Origin: a virus
Virus record (IMG/VR): IMGVR_UViG_3300014208_000003
Location: 32,001 to 96,000 of that record
Length of the DNA stretch: 64,000 bases
Strand: one strand, 5' to 3'
The stretch's first letter is position 1. Each line of letters opens with the position of its first letter. The notes under the pieces are model-generated. The model saw only the letters and a list, made by a program, of their open reading frames with translations, made no database searches and had not been told where the DNA came from. This document shows positions 39,355 through 43,384 of this stretch, piece after piece. The position numbers were made by a program, and so were the translations under genes.

Positions 39355-40335
39355 TTACATCATAGTTACTAAATCAAATGCTTTCTGTTTCATCGTTGCA
39401 CCTGTTCCGAACATTATTGAATTCATTCTCATATCAGCATTCTTTTTAACTGCTACAGCTTCATGATCCGCAAATTGAGTAACTGCATTTAATAGACTCC
39501 ATGCTGTTCCGGAAATACCTTTAAGATTATTTTTAGGATCATTTTCAAAATTGTTTTTAACACGAGTCATTATATTCTTTGCTCTTGTACTTGCTTCATC
39601 ACCTTCTTCTTTTTTAGGAGCGAAACAATCAAGAAGGAACTGTTCAACCATTTTAGAATCAACCTGTTTTAATGCAAGATGATTAGCTATTTCTGAAAAT
39701 TTATGTGTGTATTCTGCATTGATATTTAATATTGTCTGTGCTTCCTGTATCCTTGATGAAATATCTCCTGTATGACGAATTGATACTGCATTCTTAGCAC
39801 CACGAATAGCAGCATTAAGAGTATTGTTACAAACCACTCTTATATTTGTAAAGAATGATTTTAATGCAAGTGATCCGTCATGAGAATTAAAAACACATAT
39901 ATAAGTATCAGAAACATCATCAGTACCATTTATTCTTACCTGATTTTTTGTCTTGGCTGTTGCAAATACTCTTCTACCACCAAATAAAGATCCAGCGGTT
40001 TCGTATTTTAATTCACCACAACCAACCAACGATTCAAAAAATGCAAACATTTCTGTATTCTGTATTGGTGCATAATCTTCTCCGACAACCGATAATATAG
40101 CTTTAGTATCATTGCGAACTATTGCCACTTTTTCCGGAACAGCGATATCCAAAAAAGGATCACAATTAGGAACAACCATATCCATTTTAGATACAGACCA
40201 ATCCAAATGAGCAGCTTTAATCATTTCAAAAGAACCTACATCCTGTTCCAACTTCTGTCCTAAATTGTGCCACGGTAGATTTCCCGAAAAAGCCATCTCG
40301 CTGATTCCGTTTGTATTTGTAATTTCATGTGCCAT
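39355..40335 (-). CDS. DUF932-family protein
   Basis: MAHEI, PWHNLG, ETAGSL.GG, NSHDGS, RVVCNNTL, GTAW..LNAVT.F.DH. Confidence 0.85.
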   Translation of the reverse strand: MAHEITNTNGISEMAFSGNLPWHNLGQKLEQDVGSFEMIKAAHLDWSVSKMDMVVPNCDPFLDIAVPEKVAIVRNDTKAILSVVGEDYAPIQNTEMFAFFESLVGCGELKYETAGSLFGGRRVFATAKTKNQVRINGTDDVSDTYICVFNSHDGSLALKSFFTNIRVVCNNTLNAAIRGAKNAVSIRHTGDISSRIQEAQTILNINAEYTHKFSEIANHLALKQVDSKMVEQFLLDCFAPKKEEGDEASTRAKNIMTRVKNNFENDPKNNLKGISGTAWSLLNAVTQFADHEAVAVKKNADMRMNSIMFGTGATMKQKAFDLVTMM

Positions 40336-40377
40336 ATTAAAACCTCTTTTCTTGTTTGTTGATTTGTATCTGTAGTA

Positions 40378-40420
40378 AATATAAATGATGAAAACTCCAA
40401 AACCAAGAAAAAAATGAATT
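40378..40420 (-). promoter_or_regulatory. Repeated early promoter TTGGTT-N17-TATATT
   Basis: Same upstream AAATTCATTTTTT context as the 18171 copy. Confidence 0.65.
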
Positions 40421-40731
40421 TAAGACAACTTTATTTTACGTTTAGTTTGGATAATCACTTAAATCTTTTATTAACAATCACTTATGAGAATGGTTCGGAA
40501 CTTACTGTTATACCTATTCAAAACATTTCTTACAAAACAAAATATATTCAAGAACACTTATTAGATTTTTACAACAGACTTAAATCATATTCGGAATCTA
40601 TTGGAATATTACTACTAGACAGAAATATCAAAGATCCTACCACAGAACTAATTTATAGGTGGTTTATCGAAGGAAGTTTAGAAAGCATTGTTTTGAATAC
40701 TAATGAAGAAGAATTCCGGAAGATGCTTTAA
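40414..40731 (+). CDS. Hypothetical protein
   Basis: 105-aa ORF; start overlaps divergent promoter. Confidence 0.4.
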   Translation: MNLRQLYFTFSLDNHLNLLLTITYENGSELTVIPIQNISYKTKYIQEHLLDFYNRLKSYSESIGILLLDRNIKDPTTELIYRWFIEGSLESIVLNTNEEEFRKML

Positions 40732-40997
40732 CATTTTCTGCTGCCTTTACGATTTATTTCCGTCAACGCATTATTGGCAGCAATTAGAGACACGGCTTCA
40801 TCCGAAAGTTTATTACATACATCAATAAAAAAACCTACATTCATATCGCACACTGGGTTGCACTCTTCGGAGTAGTCAAAACACAGTAATGTATGACCAT
40901 CAACATCACCAAGAGCCACTGGATATGATAACCCTAAATCAATCGACCGTTTCTGTATCAATGCTTTTATTACTATTTCAACATTGGATTTTCTCAT
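40728..40997 (-). CDS. Cassette 1 hypothetical protein
   Basis: ORF fills cassette; start MRKSNV preferred. Confidence 0.5.
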   Translation of the reverse strand: MRKSNVEIVIKALIQKRSIDLGLSYPVALGDVDGHTLLCFDYSEECNPVCDMNVGFFIDVCNKLSDEAVSLIAANNALTEINRKGSRKC

Positions 40998-41052
40998 CTT
41001 CAGCCTTTCCCGAAAGTTTACTTGTGTTCTGTCTTGCACAAAATGTTATTGC

Positions 41053-41161
41053 ATCTAACGTTTAGGTTTGGTGAAGTGCCAAACCACTATAATCAATTAT
41101 TCGTTTGGCATTTGGGTCGCAGCTGGCTTGTCCAGCGGAGCCACCAAACCGTTTGTTGTGC
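41053..41161 (+). repeat. attC-like site 1
   Basis: ATCTAAC-N5-GGTTTGGTG...CACCAAACC-N4-GTTGTGC. Confidence 0.7.
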
Positions 41162-41183
41162 GATGTAAACCATGCCACTGCCT

Positions 41184-41435
41184 TTATTTGAATCTGATTG
41201 TTGCATCTTTGAAAACTAATCCCTCTGTAACGGTTCCCTCAATTCGAGTTCCATTAGGAGATGTTGCTATAAAACCTGTTTTGTAAACATCATCTTTCCC
41301 GCCCGCAAGAAAATCATAGCCAGTGAATTGAATGTCCTTATATCCATTTGCTTCAAGAATCCTTCTTGCACTATCCTCATTAGTGCAATTAGCAAAAAGT
41401 AACATTCCGATAACAACGATAATTGTCTTTAACAT
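41184..41435 (-). CDS. Cassette 2 small lipoprotein-like phage protein
   Basis: LLFANC lipobox-like; GY.DIQFTGY...GF.AT..G; AAGGAG SD. Confidence 0.6.
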   Translation of the reverse strand: MLKTIIVVIGMLLFANCTNEDSARRILEANGYKDIQFTGYDFLAGGKDDVYKTGFIATSPNGTRIEGTVTEGLVFKDATIRFK

Positions 41436-41495
41436 CTTTACTCCTTTTCAGCGGGTTTACCCGCGTTAATTATGCCTTGTGGCATGGTTTATTTC

Positions 41496-41585
41496 GCACA
41501 ACGTTCTGCTATGGTGAAGTTGCGTACTCGCAATTTGGGTCGGAGCTTGCGGAAGCAAGCGGAGCCACCATAGCCTTTGTTGTAC
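41496..41585 (+). repeat. attC-like site 2
   Basis: GCACAAC-N5-GCTATGGTG...CACCATAGC-N4-GTTGTAC; shares GGTGAAGT, TTTGGGTCG and AGCGGAGCCACCA with site 1. Confidence 0.7.
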
Positions 41586-41805
41586 GAAGTGCCTTTTGGC
41601 GCTTCTTATTTCTTTCTACACTGAAGCCCATAACATGCTTTGCTCCGCACTCCGGGCACATTTTACCGCTACCTGCTAAACTCCACAAATATGCAGTTAC
41701 TCTGTGTTTACAGAATGGACATTCAATAACACACTGAGAGCGTCCATGTTCTGATGAAAGTAAGAAGGCGTAATGTTTCTTCGATTTTTTATTTTCTTCT
41801 GTCAT
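41509..41805 (-). CDS. Cassette 3 zinc-ribbon protein (start ~MTEENK)
   Basis: CPFC...YLWSLAGSGK.CPECG; reads into attC. Confidence 0.5.
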   Translation of the reverse strand: MTEENKKSKKHYAFLLSSEHGRSQCVIECPFCKHRVTAYLWSLAGSGKMCPECGAKHVMGFSVERNKKRQKALRTTKAMVAPLASASSDPNCEYATSP

Positions 41806-41969
41806 TTTCTCCTCGAACACTTGTGTGCGTTTCGCCTTGCGCCAAAAGGCATTTTGTACAACGTATATATTCTGTAATAAGTTCACATTTACATTTAAAA
41901 TTTTGTATTATGTCGCACCGTTCAATGATTAAAATATAACAGATAAAAACCAAAAATCCTAATAAATAA

Positions 41970-42434
41970 TTAAAAAATAATTTGTAGGTCGAAATTAACC
42001 GGTAAAATTTTAACAACGGGAAGAATGTTCAAAACCTTCTTGGCACACATTTCCAGATTACCAGCTAAAAGATAATGTATTCCGTTAGTACCTTTTACGA
42101 ATGTTGGTATGAATAATTCGTCGGACATTGCTTCTGTTAAAATCCTTATTGGTTTATCTTCTCCGTATAGATTACAAAGATGGTAAAATCGTTCATAATC
42201 ACCGGAATCAAGATCGAGATAATTGCAGTTGAATAGATTTGTTTTATTGAATTGTTTTGTTTCAATTTCTTCTATGTGTGATTTTTTTAATGCTTCGGAA
42301 AAATTGGTGGGAGATAAATTTAGTAATATGTGTTTCAGAATATTTTCATGATTTGTTTTTAGGACATCAATGAAACTATCAAATGTTTTCTGATATTTTC
42401 TGTCGGTCATTAATAAATCGAAATTGGGTTTCAT
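41970..42434 (-). CDS. Hypothetical protein in late operon
   Basis: Coupled to patatin gene. Confidence 0.55.
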   Translation of the reverse strand: MKPNFDLLMTDRKYQKTFDSFIDVLKTNHENILKHILLNLSPTNFSEALKKSHIEEIETKQFNKTNLFNCNYLDLDSGDYERFYHLCNLYGEDKPIRILTEAMSDELFIPTFVKGTNGIHYLLAGNLEMCAKKVLNILPVVKILPVNFDLQIIF

Positions 42435-43384
42435 AGGAATAGAAAGTTTAAAATTGTTGCTTCTTGTTTCTTATATTCTTCCTGAGCTAACTCTTGATAT
42501 GTTTTGACCCATTTTAATCCATCCAGAGCGTCCATATCGGCATTAGGATACATACTATCAATATTTAGAAAGGAGAAATTATGATCTCTTTTTTCGATAC
42601 GTTCTGCTGCATAGATAGCTGTAGTTGTAGCCTGTGATCGTGCCATACCAATAACTTTAACAGCATCTTTTATATTTCCTGATTTGACTGCTTTTTTATA
42701 ACCAACGTCTTTATTATAGAATCCGGTTCCTATGTTTAGCATTTTTATTTTATCATCCGGATAGTTATTACAAATAGATGCATAAGCTTCGATTACGGGA
42801 TTATTTGAATCTCCTTCACCACCATCACCATAAACTATTTGGTATTTATTATCGTTTATATTTCCGAAGTAGTAAGATGCCGCGAATGTTTTGGCTATTG
42901 CGTTTGTTACATATTCGTCTTTATAATTATCGTTCCATGATTTTATGAATTCGTTTTTACATTTGATCCAGTTTTTATTCACAGTAGATAGCATTAAATG
43001 TTTTCCGGTCGTTTCGTATATTTCGGACATTTTCATATTAGGGTGTTTAGAATATTTCAGAATAACATTTAGAATCGGATCTCTTTTATATTTTGGCATG
43101 TGTAGGAAAGAAGGCTTCCACCAAGGGCAATCAGGAATAAAATACTTATCACCCTCAAGATATAAGTTTCTGATTTGTTCAAGAGGCATTCCGATTAAAA
43201 GGCTTGCACCAATAATTCCTCCGGTTGATGTTCCAAAAAATATATCAACAAAGTCATATATAGTTTTTCCGTTACCAAATCTTTTCATTATTGATTGTGA
43301 TAGTTGATACAAAATTTCGATAGTATAAGTTCCTGCCAATCCTCCACCGGGTAACACTAAAGCTAATTTCGAATCGTTTATCAT
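42431..43384 (-). CDS. Patatin-like phospholipase
   Basis: LVLPGGGLAG, GTSTGGI, DGG, LNIGTG. Confidence 0.85.
   Translation of the reverse strand: MINDSKLALVLPGGGLAGTYTIEILYQLSQSIMKRFGNGKTIYDFVDIFFGTSTGGIIGASLLIGMPLEQIRNLYLEGDKYFIPDCPWWKPSFLHMPKYKRDPILNVILKYSKHPNMKMSEIYETTGKHLMLSTVNKNWIKCKNEFIKSWNDNYKDEYVTNAIAKTFAASYYFGNINDNKYQIVYGDGGEGDSNNPVIEAYASICNNYPDDKIKMLNIGTGFYNKDVGYKKAVKSGNIKDAVKVIGMARSQATTTAIYAAERIEKRDHNFSFLNIDSMYPNADMDALDGLKWVKTYQELAQEEYKKQEATILNFLFL

Follow-up and report, generated by a model that had tools for sequence, protein, structure and literature searches.

In this study we focus on a short array of integron-like gene cassettes carried by a phage genome of the IMG/VR collection (record IMGVR_UViG_3300014208_000003). 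The stretch of DNA analysed, hereafter the window, is 64,000 nucleotides long and corresponds to bases 32001-96000 of this complete 158,262-bp record (G000), which has direct terminal repeats and a GC content of 31.7%. At positions 40721-41862 of the window lie three units of one gene each, all on the minus strand and in the order C, B, A, with two homologous branched hairpins between them.

The array starts, on its right side, where phage DNA directly adjoins the 5' arm of cassette C (41839-41862) at ...TATATAC|GTTGTAC. The cargo of this cassette (41509-41838) consists of a leader with a GAGGAG Shine-Dalgarno site (41806-41838) and of open reading frame (ORF) C (41509-41805), which encodes a zinc-ribbon protein of 98 amino acids with weak zinc-ribbon matches only. 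The last 32 codons of ORF C traverse the 3' arm of the cassette (hereafter arm', 41579-41602, ending in GTACAAC) and the inner hairpin H2 (41503-41578), which folds as a three-way junction type. Cassette B follows with its 5' arm (41479-41502, GTTGTGCGAAAT...), a cargo (41179-41478) made of a leader with an AAAGGAG Shine-Dalgarno site, ORF B (41184-41435) and the trailer TAAAGGCAG, and an arm' (41155-41178) that ends in GCACAAC, the R'' box. ORF B codes for a lipoprotein-like protein of 83 amino acids (phrog_902, E=1e-20). More than 1,000 T4-like enterobacterial phages encode proteins about 50% identical to it, the gene standing there in ordinary packed gene rows. The other inner hairpin, H1 (41060-41154), as delineated from folds and alignment, comprises unpaired spacers of 4 and 5 nt and an L stem of 9 bp, together with a three-way junction from which two small hairpins branch. 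Cassette A begins with a 5' arm (41036-41059) whose coding strand starts with GTT (R' box GTTAGAT). Its cargo (40728-41035) includes a leader (40998-41035) reading AAGACAGAAC...GGAAAGG, the latter a Shine-Dalgarno site, and ORF A (40728-40997, ATG at 40997, 89 amino acids), an orphan for which no family match was found; its arm' (40721-40741) is truncated, the AAC triplet being missing, and no inner hairpin follows. A strong Shine-Dalgarno site thus stands ahead of each of the three ORFs; Bacteroidota are generally devoid of such strong sites. No sigma-70-like promoter was detected on the coding strand of 40721-41862, where promoter-like sites are less numerous than in shuffled versions of the region.

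Each unit is bracketed by inverted repeats of its own, and those announced by the original prediction, which was made from the sequence of the window, were all found in place. Positions 41155-41178 pair with 41479-41502, and 41579-41602 with 41839-41862 (22/24 in both cases); the third pair is slightly longer than claimed, 40721-40741 pairing with 41036-41056 at 18/21 positions in place of 15/17. When the whole window was scanned for 24-nt arms with at least 22 matches lying 150-900 nt apart, the two 22/24 pairs were the only ones recovered, and 20 first-order shuffles yielded none. H1 and H2 had been predicted to be homologous hairpins resembling attC, the recombination site of integron cassettes, and to divide the three one-gene units. 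Indeed, they share identical blocks and differ by compensatory stem changes (GGTTTGGTG/CACCAAACC versus GCTATGGTG/CACCATAGC), while no other copy and no sequence similarity to them were found elsewhere in the 158-kb genome.

Including the related loci presented below, the unit has a constant anatomy on the coding strand. The 5' arm reads GTT-NNNN-GAAAT followed by about 12 variable bases; then come AAGRCA and the rest of the leader, the Shine-Dalgarno site, one promoterless ORF and the trailer (T)AAAGGCAG, after which arm' is made of about 12 variable bases and A(C/A)(A/T)TC-NNNN-AAC. The inner hairpin starts with an AAAN spacer and an L stem of 8-9 covarying base pairs, continues with a variable tip, which may be as simple as a loop or as complex as a three-way junction, and returns through the L stem to an NNNAC spacer, whereupon the next unit begins with GTT. 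The AAC and GTT triplets are invariant in 17/17 sites, whose length ranges from 57 to 108 nt. These sites were located with an anchored Python scan, MAFFT alignments misplacing the variable tips. The four bases flanking AAC and GTT match RYYY/RRRY at 3-5 of the 5 features scored, some sites being textbook GCCTAAC/GTTAGGC, and the spacers are mostly of 4 nt before L'' and 5 nt after L'. RNAalifold found changes on both sides that keep the pair at nine of the 14 R/L pairs.

Complementarity between the core and the inverse core is a cassette hallmark, and the original prediction held that it goes beyond the usual length of about 7 bp here. It extends 17 bp outside the 7-bp core, for a total of 24 bp, and arm', inner hairpin and own arm, when joined as in a circular cassette, fold into a single hairpin of 114-143 nt. 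Two unpaired positions of the outer stem are conserved, at 14/15 or 14/17; in every case they are C.A or A.A when read on the coding strand, and hence G.T or T.T on the opposite strand. This 22/24 pattern is displayed by seven of the eight intact cassettes that were tabulated (from the window and from the related contigs L119, L121 and L122), the eighth having one more mismatch, and was read by eye in a further contig, L139. The outer stems of these eight cassettes contain, on the coding strand, 175 Watson-Crick pairs, no G.T and nine C.A, the latter equivalent to G.T on the antisense strand. Moreover, the antisense strand folds better in all eight, by 1.5-7 kcal/mol. Because wobble pairs occur solely on the antisense strand and this strand gives the better fold, the folded and functional strand would be the one antisense to the genes.

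Searches with proteins and with DNA patterns recovered the same architecture in at least six further groups of phage-like contigs, whose backbones are unrelated. L119, a Logan contig, carries a homologue of ORF C (52% identical) between arms pairing 22/24 and followed by a homologous hairpin. In the IMG/VR contig L121 (28 kb), three hairpins accompany at least four cassettes, one of them with RtcB, and L122 (IMG/VR, 15 kb) has two hairpins and a cassette with an MT-A70 methyltransferase. L133 and L134 are 62-kb contigs (GC 0.47-0.49) with a P22-type portal and terminase, L135-L137 and L140 form a group of 33-38 kb contigs with a GC content of 0.42 (L137 being a 2.7-kb fragment of the group), and L139 is a complete genome of 60.9 kb (GC 0.53) that has a cassette with an MmcB-like nuclease. 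In addition, L117, L118 and part of L119 contain remnants of decayed cassettes, those of L117 and L118 including homologues of ORF A (85% identical). Cargo across the carriers corresponds to typical accessory genes, namely RtcB, the MT-A70 methyltransferase, the MmcB-like nuclease, the lipoprotein and the zinc-ribbon protein. In 13 cassettes, two from the window and eleven from the related contigs, the distal 12 nt of the cognate arms pair at 12/12 positions across the gene in nine cases (mean 10.6/12), whereas pairing between the two arms on either side of one inner hairpin is at the chance level, 3.3/12. BLASTP (E<=1e-5) revealed no protein common to the array-bearing records, barring a few weak partial matches and one shared-hairpin read-through; since the carriers otherwise have no proteins in common, the cassettes cross between unrelated phages. 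Upstream of the bare GTT with which the arrays start, the phage DNA is otherwise unrelated and has no conserved attI-like sequence. Their far ends are eroded: the array of the window stops 3 nt short of AAC, that of L121 4 nt past AAC, and that of L122 inside an ORF, while in L133 a terminal hairpin is retained, together with 12 nt of a further arm.

Several comparisons between carriers point to mobility. Cassettes with homologues of ORF C occur in different contexts, each beginning exactly at GTT beside unrelated DNA. L137 (647-2657) is 100% identical over 2,011 bp to L140 (reverse strand 82-2092) and to L135 (82-2092), the three contigs coming from three different samples, and the identity is lost 4 nt before the GTT of the cassette (CAAC|GTT), the hairpin and the cassette upstream being different. 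A cassette was thus rearranged very recently, and the breakpoint lies where the crossover is predicted. Furthermore, two of these contigs end at CAAC|GTT, which suggests that the cassettes vary at the population level and break the assemblies at this point. The inner hairpin H2 is the same at 80/82 nt, from AAC to GTT, in L133/L134 and in L135-L137/L140 (GC 0.42-0.49), where it stands with other ORFs and arms. The arm' of cassette B is identical (24/24) to an arm of L140 located beside a different hairpin, and L137 has the arm and leader of cassette A together with another ORF, the leaders being about 95% identical. In L139 (835-1095, reverse strand), the frame of cassette B formed by arms, leader and trailer (window 41155-41502) is found with one compensated base-pair change and encloses a different, acidic ORF of 56 amino acids, suggesting that genes are reloaded into a constant frame. 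Comparison of all these loci indicates that ORFs, arm pairs and inner hairpins assort independently while the arms stay paired.

We read these data, with a probability of about 0.6, as a phage-borne, integron-like cassette system in which an additional outer stem, specific to each cassette, extends the folded site and the recombinase is provided in trans. Direct support for this reading is given by the anatomy, the recurrence in unrelated phages, the pairing of cognate arms, the GTT breakpoint, the strand bias and the independent assortment; from these we infer circular intermediates, single-stranded folding in vivo and the class of the enzyme. In a circularised cassette, arm', inner hairpin and arm would form one long imperfect hairpin. 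The circle would be opened by strand exchange at the invariant GTT, which lies 24 bp away from the stem foot, and the gene would then have one half of the outer stem on either side. The cassette-specific inverted repeats would thus be the product of a crossover at G|TT within the long stem. The better-folding strand, antisense to the genes, would correspond to the bottom strand of attC, and the recombinase, most likely a structure-recognising tyrosine recombinase, would be encoded not by the phage but by its host or another element. Once integrated, the long palindrome would be split by the gene and harmless; in the excised circle it would be restored, which would favour hairpin extrusion and re-insertion. 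In addition, if the array DNA became single-stranded, pairing of the cognate arms would bring two neighbouring sites together.

The likeness to integron cassettes is extensive. As in attC cassettes (PMC4889954, PMC5371416), one promoterless, co-oriented ORF is followed by an imperfect palindromic site, with the conserved AAC and GTT triplets that were singled out for attC (Cury et al. 2016, PMC4889954), here invariant, an R box, an unpaired central spacer, an L box and a variable terminal structure; canonical sites measure about 57-141 nt and those reported here 57-108 nt. In both, the first bases of a cassette can pair with the inverse core of the same cassette, and the cargo consists of short accessory genes; the antisense strand gave the better fold in the eight cassettes tabulated, which recalls the bottom strand of attC. 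The present sites differ by a complementarity of 24 bp instead of 7, with the conserved two-base mismatch at 14/15 or 14/17, by an L stem without extrahelical bases, by the conserved leader (AAGRCA...) and trailer (TAAAGGCAG) that flank the arms and recur with different ORFs, and by inner hairpins that assort independently. Moreover, neither IntI nor attI nor Pc, as in a complete integron, was found nearby, and every copy is located in a phage-like contig. Four defining features of attC are present and one, the extrahelical bases, is absent, and membership in attC proper is unproven because these bases are missing from the L box.

Clusters of attC sites lacking integron integrases (CALINs) have been published in virulent phages, some of their sites being validated with IntI1 and some carrying methyltransferase cargo (Qi et al. 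2023, PMC9892861). They resemble the present arrays in having at least two attC-like sites, small cassettes, lytic phage genomes without integrase and methyltransferases among the cargo (PMC9892861). The two sites of the window lie about 440 bp apart in a genome without integrase, and CALIN status hinges on these sites counting as attC. In the one published example that we inspected (MW202573), the boxes are canonical (GCCTAAC/GTTAGGT) and long inverted repeats specific to each cassette are absent; published sites recombine with IntI1, whereas those described here are known from sequence alone. The split long stem and the constant leader and trailer are new relative to the published phage CALINs. 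Insertion by IntI at secondary attG sites, which retain only the GWT core (Loot et al., bioRxiv 10.1101/2022.09.11.507474), also recalls our arrays in that these begin at a bare GTT without attI-like sequence; however, after insertion of attC at attG an intact hairpin would be expected at the far end, and most arrays end in a truncated arm or a truncated ORF.

The attP site of CTX phage, which is a folded single-strand site used by the host XerCD, and the pdif modules of Acinetobacter plasmids have no recombinase of their own and involve inverted bracketing sites. The array resembles them in that an element without recombinase offers a folded hairpin and in that modules are bracketed by inverted sites. 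In contrast to them, the arms have no conserved dif-like 11-6-11 site, and their distal halves are cassette-specific and not a protein-binding consensus. The dif-like Xer sequence ATGTTAAAT occurs in one arm type only and was taken as a coincidence.

A number of observations weigh against our reading. No recombinase was identified: the families PF00589 and TIGR02249 are absent from the complete 158-kb genome G000, PF00589 is absent from four further phage records (G001-G004, one of them complete), and neither a serine recombinase (PF00239) nor a Y1 transposase (PF01797) is present in G000. No copy of the array was found beside intI or in any bacterial genome, the bacterial searches being low-powered. 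Extrahelical bases, the feature that IntI uses on canonical attC, are absent from the L stems in all minimum-energy folds, the asymmetry in the folds being present only as the 5/4 spacer and the T.T or G.T pair of the extra outer stem. The strand asymmetry itself depends mainly on two or three conserved positions and not on many independent events. Furthermore, the terminal hairpin that is expected after a fresh attC insertion is usually missing from the arrays, the inner hairpins assort independently of both neighbours, for which a crossover at R' alone does not account, and no circular junction was observed.

The carrier genome is T4-like and the array sits among small accessory genes, a setting in which the promoter early stem-loop (PeSL) cassettes of T4-type phages come to mind. 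There, small conserved intergenic modules flank accessory genes and mark differences in gene content, and shuffling is documented and mini-circles have been proposed (PMC2839356, PMC4122927). By analogy, the hairpins and the leader and trailer blocks could be portable homology modules that offer short shared sequences to the phage's own homologous recombination, with no dedicated recombinase. This would agree with the two complete genomes without recombinase and with the joining of the same inner hairpin, or of the same arm and leader, to varied neighbours, as predicted for crossovers in shared blocks. We nevertheless consider it unlikely. A PeSL is defined by a strong early promoter and a terminator stem-loop, whereas the coding strand of the array has no promoter-like site; AAC/GTT boxes and cognate arms set the present cassettes apart from PeSLs, as does their occurrence in phages that are not T4-like. 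Homologous exchange leaves unexplained why the variable outer arms are complementary across each gene and why a two-base mismatch is conserved. Moreover, L137 and L140 have merely 4 nt (CAAC) in common upstream of their breakpoint, and the carrier phages do not share any homologous flanks.

Breakpoints are seen on both flanks of the inner hairpin, and a different single-strand mechanism could be envisaged, in which a HUH (Y1) transposase, a GIY-YIG nuclease of the Ssn kind acting on single-stranded DNA, or another enzyme cuts the foot of the hairpin on both sides, so that GTT...AAC and AAC...GTT units are exchanged separately. This two-module pattern was confirmed on the loci studied: a 34-nt block of trailer and arm' is identical in the window and L140 and ends at AAC+2, the identity of L137 and L140 begins at CAAC|GTT, and arrays start with a GTT arm and often end in an arm' without terminal hairpin. 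The folded strand is moreover single and strand-specific, and Ssn nucleases that cut single-stranded DNA at specific sites exist (PMC11893778). We still judge such a mechanism improbable, given that G000 encodes no Y1 transposase, that no protein is common to the carrier phages, and that attC sites recombined by tyrosine recombinases have the same AAC/GTT triplets, the same R/L layout and the same uneven spacers (4 nt before L'', 5 nt after L'). The array does not match an IS200/IS605-type single-strand transposon: the genome has no PF01797 and the hairpins lie between the units and not inside the unit ends. A miniature inverted-repeat transposable element (MITE), or an insertion into a palindromic target, was rejected because the arms that flank one hairpin are not complementary, and an invertible segment because all cassettes examined have a single orientation, with no swap of the arm mismatches in any of them.

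Long-range stems around a cistron are known processing signals, for instance in rRNA operons and T7 early mRNAs, and the conserved leader and trailer adjoin the arms of every gene. The array could on these grounds act in RNA without any mobility, the 24-bp stem closing each mRNA and the structured spacers serving RNase III-like processing, stability or control of translation. We regard this as very improbable. The wobble-compatible mismatches all favour the antisense strand (nine C.A and no G.T in the mRNA sense, with the antisense more stable in 8/8), and no Rfam family was matched on either strand, a scan of 40000-42600 giving nothing at E<=1 and chance-level matches only at E<=10. Nor would a role in RNA explain the GTT breakpoints in the cassette content of otherwise identical genomes and the spread over unrelated phages.

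A more far-reaching reading may also be proposed, which we put forward tentatively and hold to be possible, if somewhat doubtful. The cassettes would form a phage-specific commons independent of the integron integrase, in which gene units (GTT...AAC) and structured spacer units (AAC...GTT) are swapped at both boundaries by an enzyme acting on folded single-stranded DNA, and a standard vector composed of arm, leader, trailer and arm' is reloaded with different genes. If true, unrelated lytic phages would share accessory and counter-defence genes, and a concrete model would become available for how gene cassettes are made, a genesis that has been called "largely unknown" (Loot et al. 2017, PMC5371416). 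More generally, one of the main ways in which bacteria capture genes is through integron-type cassettes, and the questions at stake are how these originate and how far their principle reaches beyond IntI. A recombination hairpin that is far longer than the canonical one, is split on integration and regains its full palindrome in the excised circle alone suggests a built-in bias towards re-insertion. If our reading holds, unrelated lytic phages would draw RtcB, methyltransferases, nucleases and lipoproteins from a common pool through an enzyme acting in trans, which would bear on the plasticity of phage genomes and on the arms race with host defences.

The array was originally described as integrase-less, and this stands: no IntI or other tyrosine recombinase is encoded in the five phage records (two complete, three partial), including, by TIGR02249 and PF00589, elsewhere in the complete 158-kb genome. 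The accompanying idea of a capture from integrons, with cassette traffic between these and phages, is unsupported, every relative found lying in a phage-like contig and 806 sampled bacterial genomes, a small sample in which one motif was tested, giving no match. A donor taxon did not emerge from BLASTN either, as the array of the window and that of L121 matched nothing among GenBank phages (50,697) and PLSDB plasmids. Searched in species genomes, metagenome contigs and IMG/VR, patterns of exact H1/H2 blocks (GGTGAAG...TTGGGTCG...GGAGCCACC) yielded only chance hits located in GC-rich coding sequence, besides a tRNA-like 3' end, and the pattern AAAGGCAG...AACAAAC...CCCAAA matched L121 and L122 besides nine chance hits only. 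A bacterial source is thus unsupported, and its absence is not established, because the patterns used on the large collections were too narrow.

The composition of the array was also as predicted. Its GC content of 0.409, against 0.317 for the genome, is in the top 0.7% among genome windows of equal size, and TCCGGA is absent from it, where 2.17 copies are expected (P(0)=0.11, not significant alone). By its GC content the array is compositionally foreign; a recent acquisition is plausible from this GC content. The left, distal junction lies at the palindrome TTCCGGAA (40714-40721), where the last arm is cut 3 nt short of its AAC and, as had been claimed, the expected AAC/GTT triplet is missing; this palindrome has 301 occurrences in the genome. 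Near relatives of the flanking phage genes, which would have permitted a comparison with an empty site, were not found in IMG/VR.

Some minor observations were made in the course of the analysis. ORFs without a stop before the hairpin read through it and gain a common tail, …APLASASSDPN… (window 41509-41602, minus strand; L133:6001-6297; L137:1035-1370; L121:6769-7110). This tail gives rise to spurious protein "homology" among unrelated genes, the matches P0008 and P0009 having been found solely through it. The hairpin at L133:5853-5937 has L-stem halves that are not complementary (GCGGCACG versus CACCATGC) and looks like a chimera of two different inner hairpins, which would imply recombination inside the variable tip. 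A highly conserved tRNA- or tmRNA-like 3' end (…TTGGGTCGCTGGTTCGAGTCCAGC…GGAGCCACC), found on numerous small viral contigs (L004, L005, L008 and about 30 other IMG/VR loci), is a chance pattern match unrelated to the cassettes. The neighbours of the array, a gene for a patatin-like phospholipase (42431-43384, minus strand; PF01734, E=6e-13) and a DUF932 gene (39355-40335, minus strand; E=1e-60), are ordinary accessory phage genes for which no link to the cassettes was seen. Finally, a convergent orphan ORF of 105 amino acids on the plus strand (40414-40731) has its final three codons and stop (…RKML*) inside the truncated arm of cassette A, and the event that formed the left junction would therefore also have given this ORF a new 3' end.

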